Shown: piece by piece, positions 358 through 29,943 of the stretch
Layout of the letters: each line of letters starts with the position of its first letter
How positions within the stretch are numbered: position 1 is the stretch's first letter
From: a virus
Length of the DNA: 64,000 bases
IMG/VR virus record: IMGVR_UViG_3300010382_000019
Span: 263-64,262 of that record
Direction: 5' to 3' (one strand)
Translations under genes and position numbers: made by a program
The notes under the pieces: model-generated
Told to the model about the DNA's origin: nothing
What the model saw: only the letters and a program-made list of their open reading frames with translations
The model's database searches: none

Positions 358-375
358 TTAAATACATATTGATAA
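338..375. other. Candidate attL of the prophage
   Basis: Perfect 10-bp inverted repeat TATCAATATG (338-347) / CATATTGATA (366-375), centred on the host-gene/integrase junction. Confidence 0.55.
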
Positions 376-9270: not shown

Positions 9271-9400
9271 ATCGTTATTACAGTGTCCTTTCTTAATAAA
9301 ACATAATATAATATCCTATATTTGCTATGCTCATGTAAACAGATTTCTTTAATAATACTTTAAGTTAAAACATATGGTACTGAATTACTTGAATGATGGG

Positions 9401-10108: not shown

Positions 10109-11571
10109 AGATCACGACTATCTTCCAACTTTACTATATCCTTAAAAGAATAATCACCATCCAAAATGTTATGAGACACGTTAGTTAAATTGTTTTTATA
10201 AACTTTCAAATTTTGACCTTGATACAGCCACATATATAAGTTTTCTTTAGCTGCAATACTTTGTATATCAGAGTAAATTTTCTTTTTTGAAGTGTTGTCT
10301 TTTTCAAATTTTACTTTATGGATCAAAGAGTCAATTTCATAATTTGAAAAACCTGCAACATTTGCAATATCACCATTTTTATGATAAAAGTCATATACAA
10401 AACTATAGGGGTTGTTTGTATCTGGAGCATATGACAAAAATGACAAATCAAAATTGCCTGAATCAAACTCTTTACAAAATTGAGCAAACGGCAGTTTAAT
10501 AATTTCACATTCAATACCAATTGATGCAAGACCTTGTCCTAAAATACCACATGCTATATCTGCATCCTCCATTCCTGATACACTTAGTATTTTCAGTTTG
10601 GGGATGTTGGCTAAACCAATACTGTCAATAATATGTTTGGCTTCTTTTGTACTATAATTAATAAAAGATATATTGGGATTATGCGAATACACTCCTTTGG
10701 GAATAGCTGTATTTATTCTTATTCCCATTCCCATTCTTCCAGATTCCAGAAAATAATCGTAATCAAAGGACATTAATAGCGCAAGTCTAAATTTATTTAT
10801 GTCTAACGGTGTATGTTTGGAGTTTAACACAAACAACACCATATCCAAAGCATCAAACTTTTTAATTCTGATATTTCTATATTCACTGAGTTCTTTTGTT
10901 TTACTTGCCTGAACAGCCATAATATCACCAATAGTCAAAAAGAGCTGCTTTCTTTTTTCGTAATCACTTTCACAAATAATTCTTATATAATGAGTATACG
11001 GCTTAGTGCCCCAATACTGATCAAACCTTATTAATTCAATTTCTTTTTTGTCGCTATTGATTGTGTTTAGCTTAAAGGGACCAGTACCAATGGCACATTT
11101 TAATTGTATATCTGAGTTTCTTAACAACTGGGGGCTGATAATTGAACTCTCCTGAATAGCCAAAAAATAGATTAAATCCGGACAATCGTATTCCAATTCA
11201 ATGCAGAGAAGATATTTATTTATACAGAGTATTTTAGTATCCTTTAATAACCCGCTAAATAATTGCCTGGCTTTATTAGATTTATTTAACATTCGTACCA
11301 AAGACTCTTTTACAGCATAGGAATCACATTCTAATCCATCGTGAAAGCAAATATTCTTTTTTAGCTCAAAGTAATAAAGATTATCTGATTCAACCCACCA
11401 CGTAGCAACTAAAACGGGAACACAGCTATTTCCTATAAAACCGAATAGTTTTTCATAAATGTTATCAATAATTTCCCTGCTGATTGTGTCAGATGCGAAC
11501 ACCGGATCTATTGAACTTGGCATATCAATTTGAAGTCTGTATATAGTTTGCATGTTTTCCGTATTACTCAT
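10105..11571 (-). CDS. Family-5 (peptide/nickel) solute-binding domain protein lacking a signal peptide
   Basis: SIDP, IYEKL, FHDG, IGTGPFKL, YWG motifs. No hydrophobic N-terminus or lipobox. Confidence 0.8.
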   Translation of the reverse strand: MSNTENMQTIYRLQIDMPSSIDPVFASDTISREIIDNIYEKLFGFIGNSCVPVLVATWWVESDNLYYFELKKNICFHDGLECDSYAVKESLVRMLNKSNKARQLFSGLLKDTKILCINKYLLCIELEYDCPDLIYFLAIQESSIISPQLLRNSDIQLKCAIGTGPFKLNTINSDKKEIELIRFDQYWGTKPYTHYIRIICESDYEKRKQLFLTIGDIMAVQASKTKELSEYRNIRIKKFDALDMVLFVLNSKHTPLDINKFRLALLMSFDYDYFLESGRMGMGIRINTAIPKGVYSHNPNISFINYSTKEAKHIIDSIGLANIPKLKILSVSGMEDADIACGILGQGLASIGIECEIIKLPFAQFCKEFDSGNFDLSFLSYAPDTNNPYSFVYDFYHKNGDIANVAGFSNYEIDSLIHKVKFEKDNTSKKKIYSDIQSIAAKENLYMWLYQGQNLKVYKNNLTNVSHNILDGDYSFKDIVKLEDSRDL

Positions 11572-12760
11572 AATGTTTCTCCTGTTGTACTATTATTTTC
11601 TTACTATAATCAATTATCCCAAGACCGCCAAATAATAAGCCTGCAATAACTATATAAATAATTGAGAAGCATATTGGTCCGACTTTAATAGTGAATTTAT
11701 CTATAATGTTACCTAAAAATATATTTCCTAAAACATCACCGATACTCGCGCTCAACGAAATCAGAGCAAATTCAAATCCTTTAGCTTCATCTCTTATGTA
11801 CAATGTTTCTGCCTTTGGAACTGCGATATATGTGCATGTTACAAATATACTGCAAAGTAAAAATATAATCAGGAAGCCAAAGGAGTTGTTAACAATTGTC
11901 ATAAAAATACCTATGAAGGAAGCTAAAAAATAGCTAAAGCAAGCCATCTTTTTTACATCGACCTTATCAGCAATATGCCCTGCAATTATGTATGTTGGGG
12001 AACCTATGAACTCATCCAGCGACATAACAAACCCTAATGATGCCGCAGTGTAACCAAATGTAATGTAAAAATGCATAGGTACTATAACATTCCACATAGG
12101 GCTAGTCACAAATGTTTGCAAAAACATTACCACACAAAACAAATAAATCTTTTTACTCATGCCACTAAACAAATTCTTATCAATGAATTTATTATTACGA
12201 TTCTGTACTGAGGGTAAAAAAAACAGAGTTACTAATGCTGCCGCAAGCAATATTGCTGCTATTATAATAAATGCATATTTACCTTTGCTGAACTGATAAA
12301 GTAATCCGGTTGCTATACCTCCCAAGGAAGTTATGATTGATGATACTCCAAGTATATTTCCAAATCCCTTTCCTCTATCCTCAAATTCTGTTAGTTCTAC
12401 CGTATAAGAAGAATTTATTGATGTAAATACCCCTCGGCATACACCTAAACAACATAAGAGTATAAAATAATATGCTATTGGAGTTACAAAGGCCATTAAA
12501 AAGATTATTATAGCACCCGACACCAACGATATCATAAGGTATCTTTTTTGCCCAACTAGATCAGAATGTCTTCCAGTTATAACCTTTATAATAACCATTC
12601 CAAGAGAAAAGGAAGCCAGTCCCCCACCAATACTACTATAAGATAATCCCTGATCTGCCATTCTTAGCGGTATAATAATCGTAATAGCATTGAAGCTCAT
12701 TAGTAAACAACCTGAAACAATTGCAAAAACCCATAGCTGAACCTTTTTACTACATATCAT
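11564..12760 (-). CDS. MFS transporter (likely exporter)
   Basis: About 12 TM segments; GRHSDLVGQKR motif A; overlaps the next gene. Confidence 0.9.
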   Translation of the reverse strand: MICSKKVQLWVFAIVSGCLLMSFNAITIIIPLRMADQGLSYSSIGGGLASFSLGMVIIKVITGRHSDLVGQKRYLMISLVSGAIIIFLMAFVTPIAYYFILLCCLGVCRGVFTSINSSYTVELTEFEDRGKGFGNILGVSSIITSLGGIATGLLYQFSKGKYAFIIIAAILLAAALVTLFFLPSVQNRNNKFIDKNLFSGMSKKIYLFCVVMFLQTFVTSPMWNVIVPMHFYITFGYTAASLGFVMSLDEFIGSPTYIIAGHIADKVDVKKMACFSYFLASFIGIFMTIVNNSFGFLIIFLLCSIFVTCTYIAVPKAETLYIRDEAKGFEFALISLSASIGDVLGNIFLGNIIDKFTIKVGPICFSIIYIVIAGLLFGGLGIIDYSKKIIVQQEKHYE

Positions 12761-12813
12761 TTGTAATCTCCCAATTATATTAATATATCAAGCCCTTTTT
12801 TACTTGGGTATAA

Positions 12814-14190
12814 CTACCTTAGCAATTTGCCTTCCATTGTATGTAATTTGCTTAGTACAGGATATTTCTCAATCAGCCACATGATTTCAAGGAAAGTCTT
12901 CTTATAATCCGCACATTTTTCACTCCGTGCTCGAATATTATTGTTATTTGTATAATATGCCTGAGCCCTGCAGCCTCCACCGCAGAAAAATCTAAAATCA
13001 CATTTTTCACATATTGGGTTCAGGTTGCTTATATTGACGCTCCTATGTTCTTTAAATGTATTAGAATCTTTCCAAATATCTGCAAATGAACGGTTCCTAA
13101 TATTCTCGGCTTTATATTGTTCAATTTGAAAAGAAGGACAGGGGTAGACATCTCCATTTGCGGATATAGAACACGTATTTATACCTGAACCACAGCAATC
13201 GGTACGGATTGGCAATAAAACGGTCTCAATTAACTTACTAATAGCTGTGTCAATCAGTTTATTGAAAAGCCGCTCATCTACTGTAGCGTATTCTAATATT
13301 TTCTTAGTAACAAGGTATTCTTCGGGAATTTTTAAACCGTTTACCTCAGCATTACCGAAATTATTTAAGAAATTTAAAATTACTCTGTCAGCACCAATTT
13401 CATCTGCAAATTTAAAATATTCAATAATTTCATGTTGATTTCCCCGGTGGATAGTAATAGATAATGTAACCGGTACTCCTTTATCTACACACCATTTAAT
13501 ATTTCTTATAGTTTTATCGTATGTACCCGCACCACGAATATATTCATGTGCCGCTTTATCCACACCATCCAATGATATTGTCGTTGGAATTTTATGTTGT
13601 GCCAAATAATGGACTATTTCTTCAGTAAAGAGTAAACCATTTGTTATAAAATTAGGTTCAATTCCGGGTATATTTATTGCATCAAATATTTCAACAATAT
13701 CTTTCCTTAATAAAGGCTCTCCACCAGTAATGTCAAGCTTTACGCCGTTTTTACCCCCCACTTTTACAATCTCTGCTGCTAATTTTCTCATTTCTTGCGG
13801 ACTTAATTTGTTTTCTACCTGAGTTTTTTCTCCTAAAAAGCAATGTCTGCAATTAATATTGCATCTGGATTCGATATTCAGCCATACACCCTGCAAAGGA
13901 TAAACTTCAGTCTTTTCTTCGTTATTATCAGGTGAATTCTGTACATCACCAACATATAAGATGCCTTCATTAATGAGCATATTAACAAACTCTTGAGTTT
14001 GACTGTCAAGATCTCTTACTTCCTGCAATGACATTCCGTTTACCTTTCTCATAATGTCACTGCTACCTTTTGAAGCAATAAACCAAAAAGGTATTTCTGG
14101 AAAGATAATGATTTCTTTGCTTCCTTCACTATTTTTATAACTACTCATTTTCCCTAATAAATTTATTTTCTCGTTTATTTTGATTTCCAA
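12814..14190 (-). CDS. Radical SAM/SPASM peptide maturase with RRE-like N-terminus
   Basis: CNINCRHC, TGGEPLL, SLDG, SPASM CCGSG...VYPC...CEKC...FCGGGCRA. Likely TTG start at 14190 after the GAGGGGGG RBS (ORF track gives 14205). Confidence 0.92.
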   Translation of the reverse strand: MEIKINEKINLLGKMSSYKNSEGSKEIIIFPEIPFWFIASKGSSDIMRKVNGMSLQEVRDLDSQTQEFVNMLINEGILYVGDVQNSPDNNEEKTEVYPLQGVWLNIESRCNINCRHCFLGEKTQVENKLSPQEMRKLAAEIVKVGGKNGVKLDITGGEPLLRKDIVEIFDAINIPGIEPNFITNGLLFTEEIVHYLAQHKIPTTISLDGVDKAAHEYIRGAGTYDKTIRNIKWCVDKGVPVTLSITIHRGNQHEIIEYFKFADEIGADRVILNFLNNFGNAEVNGLKIPEEYLVTKKILEYATVDERLFNKLIDTAISKLIETVLLPIRTDCCGSGINTCSISANGDVYPCPSFQIEQYKAENIRNRSFADIWKDSNTFKEHRSVNISNLNPICEKCDFRFFCGGGCRAQAYYTNNNNIRARSEKCADYKKTFLEIMWLIEKYPVLSKLHTMEGKLLR

Positions 14191-14218
14191 AAGAACCCCC
14201 CTCAATTCATAGTATTGT

Positions 14219-14248
14219 AAGGGGCAATACGAGTGTGTATTGCCCCTT
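14219..14248 (-). terminator. 12-bp hairpin between precursor gene and radical SAM gene
   Basis: AAGGGGCAATAC-6 nt-GTATTGCCCCTT. No U-tract in the sense direction. Confidence 0.6.
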
Positions 14249-14255
14249 GACCCAT

Positions 14256-14336
14256 TTAGATAGAGTATTTGGTATGTGAAAAATGGTCTCTAAATGAGAT
14301 CGGAGTCTTCCTCTGTGCTACTGCAAATAGTTTCAT
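14256..14336 (-). CDS. Putative RiPP precursor peptide MKLFAVAQRKTPISFRDHFSHTKYSI (26 aa), not in ORF track
   Basis: GAGGAGG RBS; first gene of the radical SAM operon; followed by a hairpin. Confidence 0.75.
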   Translation of the reverse strand: MKLFAVAQRKTPISFRDHFSHTKYSI

Positions 14337-14869
14337 ACCCTCGCCTCCTCTCTTTAGCATGTTTAATCTATTATCATACTAATAGATTTATAATTTGGAT
14401 GTATCACAATATTACTCATTCCACAGAATACTTCAAACAGTGGATCAATATAGCAAATACTTTATTTGCTACATATAATCCAAGTTTAGTTTCTCAACTC
14501 CTCTATAGTTTTGTATATCTTTTACATAAATCTAACTCCTCTGTTATTTTTACTTTTGCTTGGATAATCATATATATTTGTATACTAGGTCATCTGCATC
14601 CCATTTTTGTATATAGTTCTTGCAGGGGTGAAATTAAATTTTCTATTGCTATACAAAAACATATTATTACAAATCAAGTTACATTTTGTATAAATGTTTC
14701 CACTTATTCAAGCATATTACATTATTACACAAGAGTCCAATATTATCGCTAGACAGCATTTGATACATCGTGATAAATTTGGTCAATATATGTATTTATT
14801 TATCATTGTTCTTCATTCAAATAAAGAATAAAACAGATAACCCCCACAAATTAAATAAGAATAAAAAAT

Positions 14870-14958
14870 CCCCCTCACTTCGTAAACCGAAAAAATGAGG
14901 GGGGTAGAGGTTTATTTAAAAAAAAACCTCCTGCATAGTCCTCAGACCGGACAGGAGG
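14870..14958 (-). terminator. Two tandem intrinsic terminators downstream of signal peptide C
   Basis: CCTCCTG/CAGGAGG (14927-14958) and CCCCTCA/TGAGGGG (14870-14902), each followed by a U-run on the minus strand. Confidence 0.65.
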
Positions 14959-14969
14959 CTTCTTCACTA

Positions 14970-15101
14970 CTATGGCATAACCTGTTCCGCAGCATATCTT
15001 ACAATACTAAGTGGATCTTTATCGATCCCAGCAAACACGCTTACCGGCATTGACAGTATAAGGGTCATTGCCAGAAGCAGGCTGATTATTGTCTTTTTCA
15101 A
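14970..15101 (-). CDS. Secreted signalling pro-peptide C (MKKTIISLLLAMTLILSMPVSVFA-GIDKDPLSIVRYAAEQVMP)
   Basis: AAAGGAGG RBS overlapping the receptor stop, TTG start, Sec signal peptide ending VFA. Confidence 0.85.
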   Translation of the reverse strand: MKKTIISLLLAMTLILSMPVSVFAGIDKDPLSIVRYAAEQVMP

Positions 15102-15117
15102 AGAAAAGACCTCCTTT

Positions 15118-16209
15118 CTAATTGGAATTATTTATGTCCTGGATGTACTTACGTATATTTCCCAGGCAGCTTTCCAGTTCCCTCTTGTATTCAAGGTTCT
15201 CCGCCGAAGTATATTTAATAAGCTTTTCCACCACTGCCTCCAGCTTTTTCAGCATTTTCCCGTCTTTCGCAACTGCTTTTGCCAGTGAATCAATGTTTTC
15301 AGTTATATAGCTCTTGTACACGGCATAGTCTTCTATATTGAATAACATCTCCAGGAATTTGTCTAAGGCTTTTTCCGGCTCTCCCAGCAACACTTCAATT
15401 TCCGTATAGGTTGTAAAATAAACAAAAAGCAAAGACGTATCTTTATTGTCCAGATATTCAAACGCCTTGTTTATATGCTCCAGTGCCTTTTTATAGTCGC
15501 CTGCTGCCTTATAAAGCTCCGCCAGATTGTTATATATTTTGCTTTTATCGAAATAATCGTTTTCCCCAAACATACCCAGTGCTTTGTCATAGTACTCCAG
15601 TGCCTTATCGAAATCCGACTGTACCTCATAATTTATTCCTATATTCATCAGAGTGTATCCTATATCAGTTTTTTCCTCAGCGTATGAAAAGGCTTTCTCC
15701 AACATTTCCTGTGCAAGCTCATATTTATTAAAAGGTGATTTGGCAAGCAGCGTGCCGTACCTGTAATAATGGAGAAACAGTATATGCCTGTCCAGGTCGG
15801 GAATATCCGGCAGCAGCTTTTCTACATATTTGTACTCTGCTTCGGCTGATTTATGCTCGTGCTTGTAAAAATATATAAGCCCAAGCTCCGAGCTATAGGC
15901 GGCAAGCAAGTTCTTCCTGCCGTGTACCTTTGCCATGTCTATCGCTATTTGCAGCATTTCCAAAGCAATTTTTATGTTGTTCCTGTAAAAATGCTGCATG
16001 CCGATAACACGGTACATTTCGATTGCCCCTGCCGTCAAGCCTTTTTGGTCACACCTGAGTTTAAGCCGCCACAGTATGTAAATATCATTTTCTCCTGTGT
16101 ATTTCTTTATATTTTTTGACACATGTTCCACTAAAGCCGCTAGCTTCTCACTGTCCGCCTCATTTATTTCCCGCTCTGTCAGTCCGGTCCTGCCAATAGA
16201 TAATTCCAA
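15118..16209 (-). CDS. RRNPP-like TPR peptide receptor 2
   Basis: TPR repeats (TLMNIGINYE..KALEYYDKAL; IYNNLAELY..KALEHINKA). Likely TTG start at 16209 after GAGGTGG (ORF track gives 16266). Confidence 0.85.
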   Translation of the reverse strand: MELSIGRTGLTEREINEADSEKLAALVEHVSKNIKKYTGENDIYILWRLKLRCDQKGLTAGAIEMYRVIGMQHFYRNNIKIALEMLQIAIDMAKVHGRKNLLAAYSSELGLIYFYKHEHKSAEAEYKYVEKLLPDIPDLDRHILFLHYYRYGTLLAKSPFNKYELAQEMLEKAFSYAEEKTDIGYTLMNIGINYEVQSDFDKALEYYDKALGMFGENDYFDKSKIYNNLAELYKAAGDYKKALEHINKAFEYLDNKDTSLLFVYFTTYTEIEVLLGEPEKALDKFLEMLFNIEDYAVYKSYITENIDSLAKAVAKDGKMLKKLEAVVEKLIKYTSAENLEYKRELESCLGNIRKYIQDINNSN

Positions 16210-16474
16210 TAGTTCCACCTCATGTCTCATATGTATTTCGGTGTATATTATACAACATATTTCCATATAAATATATATTATTCGATTGACAAATTGCTAC
16301 ATAAGCTGTATATGCTGTAGCGTACTTACCCATAAATATGTACATTTCAAGAAATTACTGCAAAATACCTTATGAATGACAGTGACATATTCAGCCTGCA
16401 ACAAATATCAGGACTGCGTAAAGCAAAAGTAAAGCCTCCTGCATAGTCATTAGACCGGACAGGAGGCTTTACCA

Positions 16475-16606
16475 CTATGGCATAACCTGTTCTACAGTAT
16501 CTCTTGCAATATTAAGTGGGTTTATATAGTTTCCTGCAAATACGTTTACTGTCATTGACAGTATAAGGGTCATTGCCAGAAGCAGGCTGATTATTGTTTT
16601 CTTCAA
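16475..16606 (-). CDS. Secreted signalling pro-peptide B (MKKTIISLLLAMTLILSMTVNVFA-GNYINPLNIARDTVEQVMP)
   Basis: AAAGGAGG RBS, TTG start, signal peptide; followed by a CCTCCTG/CAGGAGG terminator (about 16434-16467). Confidence 0.85.
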   Translation of the reverse strand: MKKTIISLLLAMTLILSMTVNVFAGNYINPLNIARDTVEQVMP

Positions 16607-16623
16607 AGAAAAGCCCTCCTTTC

Positions 16624-16758
16624 TCACTTTGGTATAACCTGTTCCTCAGCATATTTTGCAATATTATCTGGATCACTATAGTTTCCGGCAAATACGCTTA
16701 CCGGCATTGAGAGTATAAGGGTCATTGCCAGAAGCAGGCTGATAACTGTTTTTTTCAA
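16624..16758 (-). CDS. Secreted signalling pro-peptide A (MKKTVISLLLAMTLILSMPVSVFA-GNYSDPDNIAKYAEEQVIPK)
   Basis: AAAGGAGG RBS, TTG start, signal peptide; directly downstream of receptor 1. Confidence 0.85.
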   Translation of the reverse strand: MKKTVISLLLAMTLILSMPVSVFAGNYSDPDNIAKYAEEQVIPK

Positions 16759-16795
16759 AGAAAAGCCCTCCTTTCCCATTTGATTTATTTTCCTA

Positions 16796-17860
16796 CTATA
16801 TGTACTTACGTATATTCGCCAGACATCTTTTTAATTCCTTGTTGTATTCAGTGTTTTCCTCCGAAGTGTATTTAATAAGCGTATCAACCACTGCTTCCAG
16901 CTTTTTCAGCATTTTTATATTTTCCGCACCTATTGTTGTCAGGGAAGCAATATTTTCAGTAATATAGCTCTTGTATACGGTAATATCTTCTATATGGTAA
17001 AACATCTCCATGAATTTGTCCAAGGCTTTTTCCGGATCTCCCATTAATACCATAATTTCCGTATAGGTTGTAAAATAAATAAAAAGCTTAGTTACATCTT
17101 TGTTGTTCAGGTAATCAAATGCCTTATTTATATGCTTCAGTGCCTTTTTATATTCGCCTGCTGCCCTGTAAAGCTCCGCCAGGTTATTGTATACTACGCT
17201 TTTATTGAAATAATCTCTTTTCTCAAAGGTATCCAGTGCTTTATTATAGTACTCCAGTGCTTTATCGAAATCCGACTGTTCCTCATAATTTATGCCTATA
17301 TTCATCAAGGTTTTTCCTACATAAACTTTTTCTTCAGTATATAAAAGGGCTTTCTCAAATGAATGCTCTGCAAGCTCATATTCATGCAGAATTCTATAAA
17401 GTATACCATACCTGGAATAATGAAGATACAATATATGCCTGCCCAGGTCAGGAATATCCGGCAGCAGCTTTTCTACACGTTTGTACTCTACTTTGGCTAA
17501 TATATGCTCGTGATCGTAAAAATATACAAGCCCAAGCTCCGAGCTGTAGGCGGCTACCAGGTCCTTCCTCCCGATTTCCTCTGCTTTATTTATTGCCAGG
17601 CGCAGCTTGTCCTTGGCAAATATCATATTGTTCCTGTAAAAATAATACATGCCGACAGCACGGCACATTTTGATATTCTCAACCGTAAGCTCTTTATCAT
17701 AGCACCTTTTTTTAAGCAGCCGCAGTATGTCAATGTCTTTTTCTTCGCTGTATTTCTTTATATTTTGCGAGACATATTCCACCATGGCTGTTAACTTCCC
17801 ACTATCCGCCTCATTTATGTCACGTTCTGTAATTCCGTCTTTGTCAATAATTGCTTTCAA
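16796..17860 (-). CDS. RRNPP-like TPR peptide receptor 1 (paralog of receptor 2)
   Basis: Co-linear similarity to the 15118-16209 protein along its length. Likely TTG start at about 17860 (ORF track gives 17968). Confidence 0.85.
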   Translation of the reverse strand: MKAIIDKDGITERDINEADSGKLTAMVEYVSQNIKKYSEEKDIDILRLLKKRCYDKELTVENIKMCRAVGMYYFYRNNMIFAKDKLRLAINKAEEIGRKDLVAAYSSELGLVYFYDHEHILAKVEYKRVEKLLPDIPDLGRHILYLHYSRYGILYRILHEYELAEHSFEKALLYTEEKVYVGKTLMNIGINYEEQSDFDKALEYYNKALDTFEKRDYFNKSVVYNNLAELYRAAGEYKKALKHINKAFDYLNNKDVTKLFIYFTTYTEIMVLMGDPEKALDKFMEMFYHIEDITVYKSYITENIASLTTIGAENIKMLKKLEAVVDTLIKYTSEENTEYNKELKRCLANIRKYI

Positions 17861-18053
17861 TAGTACCAACGCCCCCCTTAGTTGTATTATATTGTATATT
17901 ATACAACATATTGCCATGAGGGTAAATATTTTTAAAAAAATTGTAAAAATATATTGTAAAAATATCAAATTTTATGGACATTATAAGTTAGCAACTATTG
18001 AATCATGTCTAATATATGCAGTTTATGCTTGATAATAAAAAAAGAGGGTAGCT

Positions 18054-20497: not shown

Positions 20498-21046
20498 ATG
20501 AACGATTATATAAACCAGGATACAGATAAAAGCATAGAAAAGGGTAACAGCATCTACATAGAAAAGGTAAATAACAGATGTAAATATGATAGTAGCATTA
20601 TAGACAATAGAGTATATAAATTATGTTTGCTTGGAGCTACAGACAAAGATATTGTAGAAATTATAGGGATTACTGAGTCAACTTTTAATGAGTGGAAAAA
20701 ACAATATCCTAGTTTATCGGAGTCCATAAAAAGAGGCAAACGAGATGCAGACGCAAATGTAGCCGAATCCCTCTATAAAAAAGCAACTGGAACGTTTAGA
20801 ACAAGAGAAGTCAAGGAAACAGTAGACGAAAAAGGAAATGTTAAGGAAACAGTTACAACCGAAAAAGAAAATATGCCTGATACAATAGCTCAAATATTCT
20901 GGCTTAAGAACCGTGATCCGAATCGGTGGAAGGATAAACAGGAAGTTGATAACAACATCAATATTAAAACTTTGCAGATATTACCGCCAGAAGATGATAT
21001 CAAAGAGCTTACGGAAGCAGAAGAACCGAAACATATAGAAGAATAG
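20498..21046 (+). CDS. terS: Terminase small subunit
   Basis: LLGATDKDIVEIIGITESTFNEWKK HTH, VAESLYKKATG, PDTIAQIFWLKNR. Confidence 0.8.
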   Translation: MNDYINQDTDKSIEKGNSIYIEKVNNRCKYDSSIIDNRVYKLCLLGATDKDIVEIIGITESTFNEWKKQYPSLSESIKRGKRDADANVAESLYKKATGTFRTREVKETVDEKGNVKETVTTEKENMPDTIAQIFWLKNRDPNRWKDKQEVDNNINIKTLQILPPEDDIKELTEAEEPKHIEE

Positions 21047-21545
21047 CAAACTGGAAATAGGTTCAAGAATAACTTTGGCTAATTTACTGGGTTTAGTGAT
21101 ATAGCTTCACCATACCAATACAAGAAATGATGAAACAAAAATGGAAATTAAGGTAGACATAATAAAAATACATTCAAGAACTGAGTAATTGCAACGGTTA
21201 GAAGGTCATTGCACGAAACACATGTTTCGCGCAGAATTTTTGAAATTCAAAATTCAAGATTTTTCAAGGCTTTTCAGGATTTAATCATATAAAGGGAGGA
21301 TAAGCCTAAGGCTGGAATTATACATATAATACCGGAGCCATCGGCAACCTTCCTTTTTTTATGCGCGTACCTGTGCGTTTTCGCCTGGGTGTATGTGTAG
21401 GTATGAATGTGTGATGCGGTACGGAACGCAGGAGGGGGGGCAGGCAGGTTCGAGAAACTTTTTTACCTCCTCATACTATTCAAAATGTACCGCCGAAAAC
21501 AAAAGACTCTTTTCGACATAGACAATTAATGGAAGTGATAAATAA

Positions 21546-21983
21546 GTGGAAACAGTGGCTTTAGAACTGAAAGAAGCAAATGAGTTTGTGCATAGCCTGC
21601 ATAGGCATCATAAGCCAGTACATAGGGATAAATTTCGTTGTGGTGTAGTGGATGATAAAGGGAAATTACGAGGTGTAATACAAGTAGCAAGACCTGTAGC
21701 AAGGAACCTAAACGATGGGAGAATGGTTGTAAGGCTTTGCACTGATGGATATAGAAATGCTTGTAGCTTTCTATACAGTAAAGCGGCAAGAGCAGCCAAA
21801 GAATTGGGGTACAAGAAGATCATAACCTATATACTTGAATCCGAAACAGGGACAAGTCTCAAAGCGGCAGGGTGGATGCATGAAACTGATACAAGGGGGC
21901 ATAGTTGGAATTGCCCAAGTAGACCAAGAACAACTACAGCGCCGGATGATAGTAAACAGCGTTGGGCTAAATACCTAAATTAA
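21546..21983 (+). CDS. XF1762/Mom-like GNAT-fold protein
   Basis: ANEFVHSLHRHHKP, RPVARNL, RLCTDG, CSFLY, ITYILESETGTSLKAAGW. Confidence 0.7.
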   Translation: METVALELKEANEFVHSLHRHHKPVHRDKFRCGVVDDKGKLRGVIQVARPVARNLNDGRMVVRLCTDGYRNACSFLYSKAARAAKELGYKKIITYILESETGTSLKAAGWMHETDTRGHSWNCPSRPRTTTAPDDSKQRWAKYLN

Positions 21984-22072
21984 GGCAAAAGACTATTTTG
22001 TACATGTCAAGACTATTCCGCATCATGAATAAATTACCACATAACTAATGAATGAATTTTGTATTTTGCATC

Positions 22073-22101
22073 TTGATAATTGAATAATACGGTATTAATA
22101 T
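22073..22101 (+). promoter_or_regulatory. Candidate cassette-array promoter (Pc-like)
   Basis: TTGATA (22073-22078), 17-bp spacer, TAATAT (22096-22101). Confidence 0.45.
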
Positions 22102-22150
22102 GTATAGCTCTTGAACAAGTAGTTGTAAAATTTGGAAGGATAAGCTATCA

Positions 22151-22199
22151 TTAAAGGAGGCATTTACGATATACTGTCGTAAATGCTATAGTTATCGGA
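22151..22199 (+). other. Upstream recombination site of the cassette array (attI-like or reduced attC)
   Basis: 10-bp inverted repeat GCATTTACGA/TCGTAAATGC, then GTTATCGGA core at 22191. Confidence 0.55.
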
Positions 22200-22289
22200 A
22201 AGATGAGGCAGGACCGCGCGTTCTTGTGCGGATTTCTAGGATGTGTTCTAATACAATTAGTATTTTTACTATATAGTTTGGAGGATACA

Positions 22290-23099
22290 ATGAAGTTATC
22301 AGATTATTCATTAAACACACTAAAGGATTTTGTGACTGGAGATAGTAAACTTACACCATACTTATCTGGCCCTCAATTGGTAAAACTGTTTAATAAATAT
22401 GGATTCCGTGATATTTACTCATATGATTCAGGGGGATTACCTGGGAAGATGAGTAGAAATGAGTATGCATTATCAAGAATGAAAGACATTAATGGAACAA
22501 AAAAGTTGAAAGAACTTATAGAGAGTTTAGTAGATGATAGAAATTATATTTCATTAGAATTAGATAATGAAGTTGCTGCTAACAAAATAAACGAAATAAT
22601 TAAATATGATGGTTTTAAACTAGAAAGAATAGATGATTTATATGCTGTTGTAGGTGATGTTGTATATGAAGATGAAGTTGAAGTAGAAGTCCATTTTGAA
22701 GAGATTCAATCCCAGATAATAGAGCAAATAGGAGAAGCTAAATTCATCATATGGATTGCAGTTGCTTGGTTTACAGATAAAAAATTGTTTAATGAAGTAT
22801 TGAAAAAGAAAAAAGAAGGTTTAAATGTACAGGTTATAATAATTGACGATCAAATAAATGCTAATGCAGATTTTGATTTGGAATTATACTTTGAAACATA
22901 TAAGGTCCCGAAGAAAGGTTACTTTGAGAATATTATGCACAATAAGTTTTGTGTAATTGACCTTAAGACAGTAATCCATGGTTCGTACAATTGGACTAAT
23001 AAGGCCAAATACAATAAAGAGACTATTTCGATTGAAACAAGTAGAGAACTTGCTGAGATGTTTGCAAAACAATTCATTCAGTTAAAGAATGAAATATAA
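22290..23099 (+). CDS. AbiJ-NTD-like domain fused to phospholipase D-family nuclease; cassette 1, predicted defence gene
   Basis: HNKFCVID (HxKxxxxD) and GSYNWT motifs; N-terminal YLSGPQLVKLFNKYG..SRNEY helical domain. ATG 22290 follows GGAGG (ORF track gives 22203). Confidence 0.75.
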   Translation: MKLSDYSLNTLKDFVTGDSKLTPYLSGPQLVKLFNKYGFRDIYSYDSGGLPGKMSRNEYALSRMKDINGTKKLKELIESLVDDRNYISLELDNEVAANKINEIIKYDGFKLERIDDLYAVVGDVVYEDEVEVEVHFEEIQSQIIEQIGEAKFIIWIAVAWFTDKKLFNEVLKKKKEGLNVQVIIIDDQINANADFDLELYFETYKVPKKGYFENIMHNKFCVIDLKTVIHGSYNWTNKAKYNKETISIETSRELAEMFAKQFIQLKNEI

Positions 23100-23145
23100 G
23101 GGTGCGTCATCCGTGCCGCACTCCGGCTTCGCATGGTTTCATCCA

Positions 23146-23291
23146 TCCGATAACAAAGCCCTCACGCTGCGGTATGGGCAGGCAAGAGCAGGGAGCAGGG
23201 CAACCATACCCCTTCACCGGGAGCGAAGCTCCACCAGGGGGAAGACCATGGGGTCCGGTTCAGGGACGTTGTGAGTGCGGAGACGTTAGGT
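23146..23291 (+). repeat. attC-like site 1 (complete)
   Basis: TAAC-aaa-GCCCTCAC ... GTGAGTGC-ggagac-GTTAGGT; GC-rich island in AT-rich DNA. Confidence 0.8.
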
Positions 23292-23380
23292 GAAATCATC
23301 AAACTAATTTAAAATTTTAATATTATACTTTCTTGTTAAATTATAAGAAGTAAATAGAAAATAATATGTTGGAGGTTAAG

Positions 23381-24046
23381 ATGAGTTATTTACCAAAGAA
23401 AGAACGAGTTAATAACAACTTGAAAAGAGAAATACTAATTGGGATAATTGTATCTTTGCTTACTATGGTATTCCTAGAACCTATATGGAGAATTTTCACT
23501 ACATATTTACTTAGGAGCGGAAATGCGCTATACAACTATATATTAAATCGTTTTGTAATCAAAGCATCAATTGGATATAGTAGTGAACTTATTGAAACTG
23601 CATGCATACATATTATTTCGATATTTAGTGGGCTTTATTTTCTTATGATTATGAGACTATATGATGTGAGAAATAAATTATCAAAGCATCTAAAGAGTCC
23701 AGAGGAGAATAATGTTGAGGATGCCTCAGAAGTTTTTACAAGCGCAGAAAAGCTACTTCATAAGAGTAAGAGAGCATTAATAACTGGCACTATTGTACTT
23801 ATTCTTTTCATCTTTGTAAGTGCATACCCAATTTTGGAGATAAGCACAACAAATAAGATGAATCTATATTTTGAATGTAATTTGAAGATTATTTCTGTAT
23901 ATGCCAAGGAAAATGAAATTATAGAGCTAAAAGGCTTATGGGCATCAATGGAAACTTACGATGATTATAAATATATACTAAACAAAATGGAACAGATTGG
24001 GCAAAACTATGAATTGAAGTTAAAAAAAATGCTGTTAGATAAATAA
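23381..24046 (+). CDS. Membrane protein of unknown function; cassette 2
   Basis: About 3 TM segments; GGAGG RBS before ATG 23381; lies between attC-like sites. Confidence 0.75.
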   Translation: MSYLPKKERVNNNLKREILIGIIVSLLTMVFLEPIWRIFTTYLLRSGNALYNYILNRFVIKASIGYSSELIETACIHIISIFSGLYFLMIMRLYDVRNKLSKHLKSPEENNVEDASEVFTSAEKLLHKSKRALITGTIVLILFIFVSAYPILEISTTNKMNLYFECNLKIISVYAKENEIIELKGLWASMETYDDYKYILNKMEQIGQNYELKLKKMLLDK

Positions 24047-24076
24047 TGTTATTACTCATAATCAACTACACAAGGA

Positions 24077-24281
24077 AGTTTGATGACTTCATATAACAAA
24101 GCTCTCACGCTACGGCACGAAGGGCAAGAGCAAGAGGTAGGCGTGCCTTGGGTTGCCTGATGTATTTGCTTCGGACTGGAATCAGGGCAACTACACTCAC
24201 TTCATTGGGAGCAAAGATTTGCTAGGGGGAAGAACTCTGATGTTCGGTTCAGTGGATTCGTGAGTGCGGAGCCTTTATATA
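24077..24281 (+). repeat. attC-like site 2 (core G replaced by T at 24274)
   Basis: TAAC-aaa-GCTCTCAC ... GTGAGTGC-ggagcc-TTTATAT. Shares GGCAAGAGCA, AGGGCAAC, AGGGGGAAGA and CGGTTCAG blocks with site 1. Confidence 0.75.
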
Positions 24282-24376
24282 AAATATGGCGCAAAGAATC
24301 GCAATATTGTGTAGTGGAATGTACTGAGTTGTGTTTATTATAAAAATAATCAATATGAAAGCATGGAGATCATTTT

Positions 24377-25099
24377 ATGTTATATCAAGTATTTGAATAT
24401 TATAAAAAAGAATTAAGCATGTATAATTTGGTTTTCAAACTCTTCAAATTCTGGTTTTATTGTTTATTAATATTTCCATTCATATGTGGTACAACTGTAG
24501 TTTTTATATCAGTTATTTATAAGAAGCTTTTTACATATGCTTTTTTTATTTCAATAATATTACCCTTTGTTATATTGTTTATTATCGTAAACGAAAAAGC
24601 AAAAAAGGTTGTAAAGAAGAATTTCGGAGTATCCTCTAAAGAAATTATGTGGAACTCATATGATGTATTATTTGTTATTAGAAAGCATGAAAAGGCTTTA
24701 TTATTAAACTACTTAAAAGATATTGATAGTGGTATAGGTGAAATAGATATTAAAGAATTATCTGAAGCTGCCCTAATTGAAGCTGAGAGTTTAAAAACAA
24801 AATTTCCAATAATACCATCGTTTTTTGCTGCATTATTTGTTTCTCTATGGAATAATTTTTTTGCCTGGGTATATAAATTTGAAAACATTAAAAATTTTAA
24901 TTCTGCGATACAGATATTCTCTATTGCTACCCTTGCTATTTTAATGATAATCGGTTTATTTATCATGATATCAATGGTTTATAATTCAATTAAGGAAGAT
25001 ATTTTTGATAAAGATCAGAAAAAAATGAAGGCATTTTCACAATTATTGAAAGAAATATATGATAATATGGAGAGGGAAAAAAGAAGAAAAACAAAGTAG
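24377..25099 (+). CDS. Membrane protein of unknown function; cassette 3
   Basis: About 4 TM segments in two hairpins; very low GC. Confidence 0.75.
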   Translation: MLYQVFEYYKKELSMYNLVFKLFKFWFYCLLIFPFICGTTVVFISVIYKKLFTYAFFISIILPFVILFIIVNEKAKKVVKKNFGVSSKEIMWNSYDVLFVIRKHEKALLLNYLKDIDSGIGEIDIKELSEAALIEAESLKTKFPIIPSFFAALFVSLWNNFFAWVYKFENIKNFNSAIQIFSIATLAILMIIGLFIMISMVYNSIKEDIFDKDQKKMKAFSQLLKEIYDNMEREKRRKTK

Positions 25100-25333
25100 T
25101 AGACAAAGAGGTTCTAAAGCTAAATACAATGATTTTTATAGTAAAGATATCAAATATTTTTTATGAATTAATTGAGTCAGATACTATTAAGGAACATCCC
25201 AATTAATCCTGTGAAGCTTTGAAATATTGTAAAAGTAATGAGATTGTGTGAGTAATCAAGTATTATAAATGTGTTTAGAGATATGAATTGAGATATAGGA
25301 TGCCGACATTTATATCAACTCTAAGCACATAGG

Positions 25334-25410
25334 GTGCCATCCATCATATAACAACGCACTCACGCTGCGGCAGGGAGGAAAAGAAATAGGATATATGTAG
25401 CCTTGGGTTG
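25334..25410 (+). repeat. attC-like site 3 (truncated; left half only)
   Basis: TAAC-aac-GCACTCACGCTGCGG ... GCCTTGGGTTG, matching site 2; similarity then stops. Confidence 0.65.
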
Positions 25411-25591
25411 AGAGTAACAGAACTCAATAGTCTTAAATTTAACAATATGCATAAATACCGTATTATTCAGTAATGGATTTTACGGTATTTTTATATCGAA
25501 TTACAAGTTATTAGTAAAAACGTAGAAGGAATACATAAGGTATAAATACTTTATCTCATCAAAAACATTCGCTTGTAGGAGGTTGGTTTAA

Positions 25592-25822: not shown

Positions 25823-25842
25823 ATTTGCCTGAAAAGGAGGCG

Positions 25843-27309
25843 ATGCCTCTGTATAGAGTAGACTTAGCGGCTTTGCCTAAACTGACGAATCCAGTCTACT
25901 ATCCATTATATAAAAATCAGAATAGGTATTTAGTCTTATATGGTGGTGCTGGCTCCGGTAAATCTGTGTTTGCCGCACAAAAAACAATACGGCGTATGCT
26001 AGAAGAACCAGGACATAAAATACTAGTTGTCAGAAAGGTTGCAAAGACACTTAGACAAAGCACATTTGCCTTACTATGCCAAATAATATCAGATTGGAAC
26101 CTGGGAGAGATATTTGAAATAAACAAGACTGAAATGGAAATACGTTGTATAAACGGCAGCCAAGTAATACATGCTGGACTGGACGATGTAGAAAAAATTA
26201 AGTCAATACAAGGGATAACCTCAATATGGATTGAGGAATCCAGCGAACTTGAAAAAGCAGATTTTATGCAGCTTGACCTTAGACTTAGAGGCAAATTGAA
26301 GTATTACAAGCAGATAACACTTTCCTTTAATCCTATTTCTGTTTCCCATTGGCTTAAAACAGAGTTTTTTGACAACCCGAAAGAAGATGCTTTTACGCTA
26401 AAGACAACGTACAAAGACAACAAATTCCTTGATGATGAATATATCAAAGTACTTATGGCATTGAAAGATACTGATGAATACTATTTCACGGTATACGTTT
26501 TGGGTAATTGGGGCGTACTCGGCAAAACGATATTTAATGCTATGAAGGTAAACAGTAGAATATCTGAGATAGAAGACATAAAGGTTAAGAGAATAGGGTA
26601 TTTTCTCTATAAGTATGAGAACGAGAGAATTGTTGATGAATCTATCAAGTTTATTGATGATCCAAGCGGATATATTACAATCTATCAAGATGCTGAGTTT
26701 GGACACCCTTATGTAATCGGAGGTGATACTGCCGGAGAAGGCTCAGACTATTTTGCAGGGCAGGTTATTGATAACTCAAGTGGGCTACAAGTCGCAGTTC
26801 TGCATAATAGATTCGATGAAGATTTATATACCAAACAGATGTATTGCTTGGGGAAGTATTACAACAGTGCATTGATAAGCATAGAAGCCAATTTTAGCAC
26901 TTATCCAGTATTAGAGTTGCAGCGTTTAGGTTATAACAAGCAGTATAAGCGAGAGATTATGGATACCTATACAAACAGATACCAGGAAAGATTCGGATGG
27001 AGAACGGACAAGCTTACAAGACCAATTATGATTTCAAACCTTGTACAGATAGTCAGAGAGAAAACAGAGTGTTTTAACGATAAAGATACTCTGGATGAAA
27101 TGTTGACATTTGTAAGGAATGAAAATGGCAGAGCAGAAGCGCAAGCAGGAAAGCATGACGACCTTATTATGGCTCTTGCAATAGTATATAAGACAAGAGG
27201 CCAACAGGATTACAATGTGAAATTCCATAAAGAAGAAAAGACACTTATACAGAAAGACAAACAAAAGCGGGCGAGAAGATCATTATTTGGTGGCAGGAGA
27301 CTTGCTTAG
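25843..27309 (+). CDS. terL: PBSX-family terminase large subunit
   Basis: GGAGSGKS Walker A, WIEES, SFNP, GGDTAGEG, HDDLIMA. ATG 25843 follows AAAGGAGG. Confidence 0.95.
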   Translation: MPLYRVDLAALPKLTNPVYYPLYKNQNRYLVLYGGAGSGKSVFAAQKTIRRMLEEPGHKILVVRKVAKTLRQSTFALLCQIISDWNLGEIFEINKTEMEIRCINGSQVIHAGLDDVEKIKSIQGITSIWIEESSELEKADFMQLDLRLRGKLKYYKQITLSFNPISVSHWLKTEFFDNPKEDAFTLKTTYKDNKFLDDEYIKVLMALKDTDEYYFTVYVLGNWGVLGKTIFNAMKVNSRISEIEDIKVKRIGYFLYKYENERIVDESIKFIDDPSGYITIYQDAEFGHPYVIGGDTAGEGSDYFAGQVIDNSSGLQVAVLHNRFDEDLYTKQMYCLGKYYNSALISIEANFSTYPVLELQRLGYNKQYKREIMDTYTNRYQERFGWRTDKLTRPIMISNLVQIVREKTECFNDKDTLDEMLTFVRNENGRAEAQAGKHDDLIMALAIVYKTRGQQDYNVKFHKEEKTLIQKDKQKRARRSLFGGRRLA

Positions 27310-27906: not shown

Positions 27907-29943
27907 GTGGTGTGGATGCCTGTATTTGAAGGATTAAGAAACACTGTAAGCAGGTTCTTTAATAATAAAGACCCTGCTTTAGCTTTAAATAGCGAAGAAA
28001 ATACAAATATAGATGTTGAAGGTACGGTTATAGAACAATTTAATAAAGAAATAGAGAAACAGTTGTTAGTATCATATGTAAATAAGGAATTTGACAGGAT
28101 GCAAAAAGAAAGGCTGCCTTACGAATTACAGTGGCAGTTGAACAATAATTTTCTAAGAGGCAATCAATACTGTGATATTAATATGCAGACACAAGGAATA
28201 CAGGAAATACCCAGACTTTATTGGTGGCAGCAGAGAGAAGTATTCAACCACATTGCGCCAATATATGAAACCAGGCTTGCGAAGCTTGGAAGGGTAGACC
28301 TCTCTTTAAAAGTAAGACCGGCAACCAACGAGCAAAACGACATAAATACTGCAAAGATATGTACTGCATTATGCAAGGGTACAATGCGGCAACAGGAAAT
28401 GCAGGCAAAGACAAAAAAGGCTAACGCCTGGTGTGAGTTAATAGGGACTGTACTTTATAAAAACGTATGGAATGCAGCTTCCGGTACGCAATTAGCTGTT
28501 ATAGACGGGGATAATTTTTCAGAAGGTGGTATTGAAACTACAATAGTTCCAGCATATGAGTTTTATCCTGATTCTAATTTTTCTGAGGATATAGATACTA
28601 TGCGGTGCTGCATACATGCAAAAGTATATTCAGTTAATGAGATAGAAGAAAAATGGGGAATAAAGATTGACGGACGTGAAGTGCCTGTATTCAATCTTAA
28701 AAATAGCAATATAAGTCTTGGGGGAATTGGATATACCGCAACAATACAGACTGTTAATATAACAAAACAGAAAGACAGCGAAGTTGTAAAGGAATATTAC
28801 GAAAATGTGACAAAGAAGTATCCTAATGGAAGGCTAATAATCGTGGCTGGTGAGACTCTCCTTTATGAAGGAGAATTACCCTTCAAAGTAGGTGAGCAGG
28901 GTAAAGTTGGCATACCCTTTGTAAAGCAAGTATGCGTAGAAAACCCAGGTTATTTTTGGGGTACATCAATCATCGAAAGATGTATTCCTATACAACGAGC
29001 TTATAACGCCGTTAAGAACAGAAAGCACGAATACTTGAACAGAATTGCAATAGGTGCATATTCGGTGGAAAACGGTGCTTTGGATGCAGACGAATTGCAG
29101 GAAGATGGTATAAGCCCAGGTAAAATTGTCATGGTTGAAAGAGGGTTCAACCCTCCAAGACCTATAGATAATGGAGTGTTACCCTCCGGATTTCCGGATG
29201 AAGAAACCAGGTTACTTAATGAATTTGTTCAAATATCCGGTGTATCTGAACTAAGCAGAGATAGCACAGCTCCTTCAGGTGTTGGCTCCGGTGTAGCACT
29301 TGAGATATTGAAGGAACAGGATGATACACGGTTAAGTCTTACTGCTGAAAATGTAAGAATTGCAATAATCAAAGTTGGTAAACAGTGGTTAAGACTGTCT
29401 AAACAATATGCTACATTTCCAAGAATGTTGAAATACATCGGTGATGATAACGATGTTGCAGTTGTTGAGTGGGAAGCAAATGACATAACCTCTGATGATA
29501 TAGTCATTGAAACCGAAAATGAACTTGCACAGACTCCGGCACAGAGGAAACAGATGGTAGTTGATTTATTGCAATATGGCTTATTTAATAATCCTGAAAC
29601 CGGAAATATTGATAAGAGTATGAGAGGTAAAATATTTGAAATGTTGGAGCTTGGCAATTGGGAGGCTGCAACAGAGCTGGAAAATTTACATGCTAATAGA
29701 GCTAATAAGGAAAACATTTATCTAAAGAAAGGTACAATACCGCAAATACAAGAGTATGACGATCATACAATACACATAGTTGAACATAACAAGTACAGGC
29801 TTACAACCGATTTTGAAGAATTGGCAAACCAGAATCTTGAGATTGTTCAACTTTTTAATATGCACGTTAAACAGCATGAGGCTTATTTACAGCAAGCGGC
29901 TGTGGCGCAACAACAAGCTATTAACAATGCTAATGTGCAATAG
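27907..29943 (+). CDS. Portal protein
   Basis: Size, position after terL, FWGTSIIE...IPIQRAYN, SGVALEIL motifs. Confidence 0.85.
   Translation: MVWMPVFEGLRNTVSRFFNNKDPALALNSEENTNIDVEGTVIEQFNKEIEKQLLVSYVNKEFDRMQKERLPYELQWQLNNNFLRGNQYCDINMQTQGIQEIPRLYWWQQREVFNHIAPIYETRLAKLGRVDLSLKVRPATNEQNDINTAKICTALCKGTMRQQEMQAKTKKANAWCELIGTVLYKNVWNAASGTQLAVIDGDNFSEGGIETTIVPAYEFYPDSNFSEDIDTMRCCIHAKVYSVNEIEEKWGIKIDGREVPVFNLKNSNISLGGIGYTATIQTVNITKQKDSEVVKEYYENVTKKYPNGRLIIVAGETLLYEGELPFKVGEQGKVGIPFVKQVCVENPGYFWGTSIIERCIPIQRAYNAVKNRKHEYLNRIAIGAYSVENGALDADELQEDGISPGKIVMVERGFNPPRPIDNGVLPSGFPDEETRLLNEFVQISGVSELSRDSTAPSGVGSGVALEILKEQDDTRLSLTAENVRIAIIKVGKQWLRLSKQYATFPRMLKYIGDDNDVAVVEWEANDITSDDIVIETENELAQTPAQRKQMVVDLLQYGLFNNPETGNIDKSMRGKIFEMLELGNWEAATELENLHANRANKENIYLKKGTIPQIQEYDDHTIHIVEHNKYRLTTDFEELANQNLEIVQLFNMHVKQHEAYLQQAAVAQQQAINNANVQ

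Follow-up and report, generated by a model that had tools for sequence, protein, structure and literature searches.

An integrase-less, partly decayed array of integron-like gene cassettes, probably of Clostridia origin, in a prophage

Introduction

As reported in part (PMC8618304), sedentary chromosomal integrons such as the Vibrio cholerae superintegron, with its VCR sites and its integrase VchIntIA (2a3v), consist of long one-strand arrays of small, mostly single-gene cassettes. Their folded sites are near-identical within a lineage and carry AAC...GTT boxes with crossover at the 3′ GTT, and the first bases of a cassette pair with its own 5′ box. One tyrosine recombinase and an attI site stand at the head, and additional integrase-less arrays occur in the same genome. 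In this study, we analyzed a 64,000-nucleotide (nt) stretch of viral DNA, hereafter the window (positions 263 to 64,262 of IMG/VR record IMGVR_UViG_3300010382_000019), which carries an array of three gene cassettes, each followed by a GC-rich, attC-like element. Related arrays in Clostridia genomes share all the features of the superintegron listed above and differ from it in the recombinase and in the architecture of the site.

In phages, clusters of attC sites lacking integron-integrases (CALINs) and integron fragments have been described, with canonical attC sites found by IntegronFinder or HattCI (Front Microbiol 2023, PMC9892861). In Shewanella prophage M16-3, attI lies at the start of the CALIN, and the text of the same paper names no Clostridium, Bacillus or Firmicutes host (PMC9892861). 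The window array is likewise an integrase-less cluster of sites in a prophage; in contrast to the phage CALINs of that survey, its sites belong to a non-canonical Clostridia family. Moreover, the IntegronFinder papers report complete integrons as nearly absent from Firmicutes, offer no explanation, and dismiss recombinases without intI_Cterm near attC sites. Our full-text search of the literature found no paper describing this Clostridia system.

Based on the analysis below, the window array is very probably an integrase-less, partly decayed three-cassette array of a Clostridia integron-like system, located in a prophage hotspot between terS and terL. The system itself, which is widespread in Clostridia, is bacterial and chromosomal, and the phage carries an integrase-less fragment of it.

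The cassette array of the window

The integron-like array occupies window positions 22163-25412 and comprises an attI-like site and three co-oriented cassettes, with two full GC-rich elements and one truncated element whose ends are of the TAAC...GTTA type (Table 1). The elements are homologous to one another, and their G+C content is about 60%, compared with about 25% in the cassettes. The original prediction, made from the letters of the window, had proposed three co-oriented genes, each followed by a homologous GC-rich repeat with attC geometry. All of these are present in the sequence, and the full geometry, TAAC-N3-GCNCTCAC ... GTGAGTGC-N6-GTTA, is found at sites 1 and 2, with its 5′ half alone at site 3. 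A profile hidden Markov model (HMM) built from 144 element copies, to which sites 1 and 2 themselves belonged, matches sites 1, 2, and 3 in the whole 64 kb and nothing further. At site 3, profile positions 12-93 of 244 align to window 25331-25412; the end of this match at about 25412 agrees with the truncation proposed earlier, as does the TTTA of site 2 with the proposed loss of the core G.

Additionally, the start of each cassette had been claimed to be complementary to the sequence at the cassette's own end, and the same counts were obtained here: 9/9 for cassette 1 (15/19 in the 19-nt register of the family), 18/21 for cassette 2, and 13/19 for cassette 3. A mismatch at position 11, typical of the family, is present in all three. 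No tyrosine recombinase (PF00589) was found in the 64.7-kb provirus record, again as predicted, and with three co-oriented sites within 2.3 kb, recognized here via the family-specific profile, the array falls among the CALINs. A blastn search of site 1 against 50,697 phage records returned no match.

Table 1. Features of the cassette array and of the surrounding prophage (window coordinates; E-values refer to the family profile)
Feature	Position	Strand	Description
attI-like site	22163-22190	+	palindromic TTTACGA-N7-TCGTAAA (22163-22183) plus 7 nt, directly before the first GTTA
Cassette 1, GTTA to TAAC	22191-23154	+	open reading frame (ORF) 22290-23099, 269 amino acids (aa)
Site 1	23151-23288	+	intact attC-like element, short (138-nt) class; TAAC...CTCACG...CGTGAG...GTTA; nhmmer E = 1e-37
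Site 1 boxes	TAAC 23151-23154; GTTA 23285-23288	+	from the sequence
Cassette 2	23285-24097	+	ORF 23366-24046 or, more likely, from ATG 23381 behind GGAGG
Site 2	24094-24277	+	full-length element, 184-nt class; nhmmer E = 3.5e-49
Site 2 boxes	TAAC 24094-24097; TTTA 24274-24277 in place of GTTA	+	core G lost
Cassette 3	24274-25352	+	ORF 24377-25099, 240 aa
Site 3	25349-25412	+	truncated, 5′ part only; nhmmer E = 8.8e-13 over 25331-25412
Site 3 boxes	TAAC 25349-25352; no 3′ box	+	3′ half with GTTA lost
Variable accessory region between terS and terL	21515-25537	.	Mom-like gene and array; PHROGs, Pfam
Large serine integrase	358-1923	-	
terS	20498-21046		
Mom-like gene	21546-21983		ORF covers profile positions 26-175 of 245 only
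TerL	25825-27309		
Portal	27907-29943		

TTTA serves as the 3′ box in 4 of about 595 family copies. With site 2 ending in this box and site 3 truncated, cassettes 2 and 3 have probably become fixed. The sites on either side of cassette 1 (0 and 1) retain intact boxes, so cassette 1 alone still looks movable. Collectively, the lack of a recombinase in the phage and the damage to sites 2 and 3 indicate that the window array is decaying. Activity might also fall with distance from the promoter, as the original prediction had suggested. A scan for promoters, which would show whether the cassettes have their own, yielded 25 candidates, with 22 expected from shuffles, and hence no excess.

Three further features were observed in and around the array. 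A 24-nt inverted repeat (88% complementary; 22076-22099 and 25451-25474) encloses the attI-like site and the cassette block, and its right arm is part of a terminator-like hairpin (25453-25490). About 0.1 such pairs are estimated by chance, which is of borderline significance, and a search of related loci did not recover the repeat. Directly after the 19-nt arm at the start of cassette 1, a short GC-rich hairpin is followed by GGATT (22205-22236); the same arrangement is found after the first GTTA in the related loci L116, L078, L065, and L021, with a varying stem sequence and preserved pairing. Finally, a stretch of about 60 nt 3′ of the cassette 3 ORF (25112-25170) is about 74% similar to stretches in three array loci, L132, L032, and L111, and may be a conserved 3′ motif or the remnant of a small gene.

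The element family in other genomes

A search with the conserved 3′ box of the element led to a single viral contig (L009), to 56 stretches from species genomes that were verified, and, as a minimum, to more than 120 metagenome contigs. On the collected loci, the profile HMM gave at least 654 matches in 175 loci other than the window. All 479 pairs of neighboring copies lie on the same strand, with 0 in opposite orientation and a median spacing of 912 nt. The ends are well conserved, TAAC being present in 422 of 469 copies and GTTA in 550 of 595. Cassettes of the family have a median length of 786 nt; 348 of 353 contain an ORF, and in 315 of these the longest one runs in the direction of the elements. 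Because the sequences are related, these counts are not independent events. As judged from record titles, the hosts are mostly metagenome-assembled genomes of Clostridia (Lutisporaceae, Clostridiaceae, Anaerovoracaceae, Clostridiales GWB2_37_7, and Lutispora), and one host genome is labeled Calditrichales MX18-03. Clostridia arrays with a linked tyrosine recombinase, which the original prediction had proposed to look for, do exist: such a gene stands at the heads of at least 12.

Two sets of matches were rejected. With a first DNA pattern, derived from the 5′ box, 15 of 16 viral matches proved to be chance, the real one being L009 only. Similarly, eight genome-contig matches (Halopseudomonas, Bordetella, Marinibacterium, and others) contained no verified element and are regarded as chance.

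L009 itself shows an additional arrangement. On its minus strand (6510-6685), nested short units bounded by GTTA...TAAC lie between two cassettes, and a hairpin site, TAAC-GTGGCGCGGG ... CCCGCGCCAC-GTTA, has another unit inside. These units resemble cassettes that are empty or minimal and whose site is of a second, simpler type.

Cassette ends and movement of cassettes

For each cassette, the 20 nt that follow the GTTA at its start were compared with the 20 nt that precede its own TAAC, the latter taken as reverse complement. A mean of 11.7 matches was obtained over 353 cassettes, compared with 6.6 for random pairs and 6.9 for the two flanks of one element. The pairing spans positions 1-19, and all four Watson-Crick pair types are seen at positions 12-17. 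Furthermore, a site reconstituted from the two ends of one cassette folds 7.5 kcal/mol better than the same site in its array context (p = 5e-42). Such own-end pairing would be expected from a recombination at the 3′ GTTA that swaps the downstream arm, as in the attC sites of integrons.

Movement of cassettes as units can be followed between loci. In 21 pairs of near-identical cassettes, at least one neighbor differs. L044 and L127 share one cassette and the whole element behind it without any difference, and their sequences part directly after GTTATA. Moreover, window cassette 1 recurs in L221, which comes from another sample, with 92% identity (L221 26-981 corresponding to window 22191-23147). 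The shared stretch starts exactly at GTTA and is preceded by the 3′ end of a genuine element in L221 and by phage DNA in the window; the match stops a few bases short of the expected TAAC, and no downstream element is present there. At the level of sequence, these comparisons demonstrate the boundaries of the cassettes and their unit-wise shuffling.

The same data bear on the possibility that the elements are repeats resembling miniature inverted-repeat transposable elements, or derived from insertion sequences, each of which entered an intergenic region on its own. Their shortness, high G+C content, and multiple copies, with TAAC/GTTA as inverted termini, would suit this explanation, to which we give almost no credence: independent insertion accounts neither for the absence of opposite-strand neighbors and the strict gene-repeat period nor for cassettes that travel with the element behind them. 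Target duplications were not observed, and the complementarity between the two flanks of an element is at the random level, in contrast to that between the ends of a cassette.

Within one array of L206 (Candidatus Clostridium radicumherbarum), two GNAT acetyltransferase cassettes are duplicated together with their flanking sites (12342-12899 and 15763-16320). Cassette joints seen in reads and contigs of the source sample and of one additional sediment run were rejected as evidence of excision, as they reflect cross-mapping of elements from other arrays.

Structure of the site

Three helices of the element are 82-98% Watson-Crick paired, with some compensatory changes. These are R (TAAC/GTTA, paired in 93-98%), L (CTCACG/CGTGAG, paired in 89-98%), and the long-range H5 (ACACCCC..ACCGG with CCGGT..GGTGT), in which positions 129-190 and 132-187 are poorly paired. 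The spacers measure about 6 and about 9 nt. From TAAC to GTTA, the site is 130-190 nt long, to which arms of 19 bp are added, and in 91% of cassettes, position 11 of this stem is occupied by a conserved A.C when read on the top strand, which corresponds to G.T on the bottom one. When single sequences were folded and compared with shuffles, z was 0.32 and -0.63 for site 1 and -2.14 for site 2, representing little or no gain.

Stronger evidence was obtained from L206. Its sites keep TAAC, the A-rich spacer, an L″ box, an L′ box, a spacer of 7-9 nt, and GTTA. Their L boxes differ in sequence yet are complementary (TTCAAG/CTTGAA, ATTAGAG/CTCTAAT, and TTCCCGTC/GACGGAAA), and their cores differ as well. 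In another copy, CTTCCC/GGGAAG takes the place of CTCACG/CGTGAG, and the L boxes covary in both L206 and L117. The retention of the boxes of L206 with a changed sequence indicates that the site is defined by its shape, like attC sites. Judged against these relatives, the GC-rich core of the window elements appears as one lineage's version of the terminal structure.

A highly conserved internal sequence with helices, in elements that lie in 3′ untranslated regions, could also point to structured RNAs (terminators, insulators, processing sites, or small RNAs), in which case the array would have arisen from ordinary repeat recombination without a dedicated recombinase; a G.U-type asymmetry would also suit an antisense RNA. 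We consider this explanation improbable. Rfam 15 gave no match at the gathering score in the 64 kb and none at E ≤ 10 within the elements. Homologous recombination would not yield complementarity between a cassette's own start and own end, and repeat recombination would not put breakpoints at GTTA, outside the conserved core. Moreover, the L206 sites retain the boxes and not the core, and one recombinase family stands at the array head with an attI-like site, as described below. The original prediction had also named what would count against its integron-like interpretation, namely a match to a known repeat or RNA family, a lack of gene-repeat periodicity, and neighbors that never shuffle as units; instead, we found no Rfam match, a strict periodicity, and shuffling of neighboring cassettes.

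The array recombinase

A homologous tyrosine recombinase (49-89% identity) is encoded directly upstream of the first cassette, on the same strand, in L009 and in at least 11 other loci. In five genomes that were checked, exactly one array-type recombinase is present in each, at an array head, co-oriented with the cassettes and followed by an attI-like site. The same genomes encode a separate protein about 35% identical to the array recombinase, which we regard as a putative housekeeping Xer. Three of the five have further element loci, with no recombinase match on those contigs. In G001, arrays are found on three contigs, and in G004, a second array (L055) opens with an attI-like site and has no adjacent recombinase. 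Arrays of the L055 type therefore provide a precedent within the family for integrase-less arrays served in trans. Collectively, these sequence comparisons demonstrate the anatomy of the arrays, the existence of the element family, and its linkage to one recombinase.

At full length, the recombinases measure about 350-370 aa; in L009, the locus ends within the gene. An N-terminal domain of about 70 aa is followed by Phage_int_SAM_4 and then by the catalytic domain, whose R, K, HxxR, H, and Y residues are invariant. The N-terminal domain is weakly HARP-like (PF07443) and scores above the cut-off in P0022 only (26.7 vs 25 bits). Among structures in the PDB, the best match is VchIntIA (2a3v, 152 bits), and XerA (5hxy, 4a8e) reaches 136 bits. 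The alignment to VchIntIA falls into two stretches, and the break between them, 58 residues in VchIntIA vs 16 here (about 42 fewer), indicates that the IntI-specific insert is missing. Consistently, the NCBIfam model NF040815 was passed (236 vs 220) and TIGR02249 was failed (218 vs 265). Xer/XerA proteins (NF040815) have the same SAM-like plus catalytic layout and also lack the IntI insert. In contrast, Xer acts on short double-stranded dif sites in chromosome dimer resolution, whereas the present enzyme is linked to cassette arrays and is closer to VchIntIA. A different association was observed in one of the 12 or more loci mentioned above, L087 (1240-2300), where directly behind the 49%-identical relative of the recombinase lies, in place of a cassette, a gene with an IS91-type zinc-binding transposase motif.

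These properties allow the window array to be compared with an ordinary member of the canonical integrons, that is, a CALIN made up of standard attC sites on which a standard IntI acts. Such an assignment, which we regard as very improbable, would agree with the AAC/GTT boxes, the cassette polarity, the one-strand arrays, the crossover at the 3′ GTT, VchIntIA as the best solved relative of the recombinase, and the phage CALINs already known (PMC9892861). Canonical sites and those of the present family also have in common the R/L inverted repeats around an unpaired spacer, the primacy of structure over sequence, and a cassette start complementary to its own R″. In contrast, the linked recombinase has no IntI insert and stays below the TIGR02249 threshold, carries an additional, weakly HARP-like domain at its N-terminus, and is encoded in the direction of the cassettes, unlike that of the Vibrio cholerae superintegron. 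The sites of 130-190 nt, with a 19-bp R stem, a large conserved GC-rich terminal structure, and the fixed position-11 A.C, likewise differ from those of the superintegron, and canonical sites measure about 57-141 nt. Furthermore, 122 of 595 sites agree with the canonical core GTTRRRY and 102 of 469 with RYYYAAC; the consensus in this family is GTTAKNY. Finally, the hosts are Clostridia, and surveys with IntegronFinder report almost no Firmicutes integrons. In the 'inverted integrase' integrons (Treponema denticola), the integrase is transcribed in the same direction as the cassettes, as here; unlike the present system, these integrons keep the IntI additional domain and attC sites of canonical size.

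The attachment-like site at the array head

Behind the recombinases, the attI-like region consists of about 100 nt with two palindromic motifs, followed by GTTA. Among closely related recombinases, these regions are alike up to the GTTA and different after it. The palindromic motif occurs at only eight places in 1 Mb of related loci: L047, L055, L073, L113, L116, L150, and two in the window. The copies in L113, L116, and L150 directly follow the array recombinase. In L055 (G004), nearly the same motif is followed by a 7-nt spacer and GTTA, and no recombinase is adjacent. The second match in the window (24167, minus strand) falls inside site 2 and looks like a chance occurrence. The integron-like interpretation of the original prediction is thus upheld by the anatomy, the unit-wise mobility, and the recombinase with its attI-like site at the head of related arrays.

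Proposed mechanism and significance

Each cassette comprises one gene and, behind it, a folded recombination site. In a cassette circle, the site would be composed of a 19-bp stem, formed by the two ends of the cassette and closed by TAAC/GTTA, an unpaired spacer, the CTCACG/CGTGAG helix, and the large GC-rich terminal structure. A complete platform comprises one Xer/IntI-related recombinase upstream of the array and co-oriented with it; behind the recombinase gene, an attI-like site containing palindromic motifs extends up to GTTA. Crossover would occur at or just after the 3′ GTTA, so that the sequence downstream would belong to the next cassette. For this reaction, the site would have to fold, most likely as single-stranded DNA and probably as the bottom strand. 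In the window, only a host recombinase acting in trans could carry it out.

Several points weigh against this mechanism and against the assignment of the window array to the system. That the recombinase catalyzes the reaction, that the site folds as single-stranded DNA and on which strand, that the enzyme can act in trans, and that recombination still takes place is inferred. The attI-like site of the window has one copy of the palindromic motif, compared with two in the recombinase-linked sites. The family was gathered via one conserved 3′ box, so its statistics describe one sub-family. RNAalifold gave almost no consensus on mixed or class-wise alignments, and the signal in mutual information came mainly from a single variable hairpin with two variants; for these reasons, the helices were tested pair by pair. 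The excess of A.C over G.T on the top strand (622 vs 199) stems from a small number of positions in related sequences, and folding energy shows no difference between the top and bottom strands.

A more far-reaching scheme, which we put forward as speculative and rather unlikely, is that temperate phages of Clostridia shuttle the system. The attI-like site between terS and terL would serve as a dock, the insert-less recombinase of the host would load and unload cassettes, and cassette banks would be swapped by lysogeny; the recombinase would then represent a second solution to the handling of folded DNA, with the HARP-like domain replacing the IntI insert. The capture of cassettes by the phage at a dedicated site, part of the original prediction, may have taken place in this array.

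Integron surveys define the integrase by its extra domain. If an insert-less relative operates large cassette arrays, the Firmicutes gap would in part be an artefact of this search definition, Clostridia would have cassette banks of their own, and the IntI insert would not be the sole way to handle folded sites. The prophage copy provides a direct link between bank and phage, as the same cassette stands behind a chromosomal-type site in another sample and behind the attI-like site of the phage. Cultured or named hosts (Alkaliphilus hydrothermalis and Candidatus Clostridium radicumherbarum) make the system testable.

Cassette cargo

The cassettes had been described as apparently defence-type, which is supported for cassette 1 only. 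Its protein is PLD-family (HKD) nuclease-like (PF13091 at 1.7e-20) and has a weak PADLOC match to DrmC (2e-8); these similarities make a role in defence plausible. The N-terminal domain belongs to a family without assignment, and Pfam at E ≤ 5 gave nothing credible for it. Relatives of this protein, about 267 aa long, form a family that is widespread and often found in Bacteroidota. One of them adjoins a restriction-modification pair, and a few carry a precomputed hit to PF18860, which we take to be the AbiJ N-terminal domain.

Cassette 2 encodes a predicted membrane protein without a match in Pfam (also at E ≤ 5), PHROGs, or PADLOC. The product of cassette 3 is a multi-pass membrane protein of a small family with 122 cluster representatives, which are colinear over the full length; a search of Pfam (also at E ≤ 5), PHROGs, and PADLOC returned no family match. 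Its three nearest checked relatives (45-47% identity) lie outside arrays. When the three window proteins were compared with all collected loci, no match was found. The array of L206 carries GNAT acetyltransferase, NUDIX, and HAD hydrolase genes.

Prophage context

The large serine integrase, terS, TerL, and portal genes (Table 1) identify the window as a prophage. The source contig (107.7 kb) comes from a sediment metagenome and continues beyond the integrase with host genes, among them an ASD gene whose product is 70-74% identical to Fervidicella and Clostridium proteins. Judged from this one housekeeping protein, the host is Clostridiaceae-like, in agreement with the predicted clostridial location. 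Two phages, L208 and L209, have TerL proteins 95% identical to that of the window and match the window up to 21514 and again from 25538. Between these points, they carry 3.1 kb of other DNA and no element. This difference places the array in a terS-terL accessory hotspot. At the left edge of the variable region, a 20-nt direct repeat (85%; 21500-21519 and 21986-22005) flanks the Mom-like gene and may mark a boundary of module exchange.

Outside this region, host-like genes for an SBP_bac_5 solute-binding protein, an MFS transporter, and two TPR proteins lie between the replication and late genes (8641-17968), and in L220, a fragment of another MFS gene adjoins the serine integrase on its outer side; the provirus may be a composite. 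Finally, a single ORF of 4430 aa extends over 41121-54413 in the late region of the phage.

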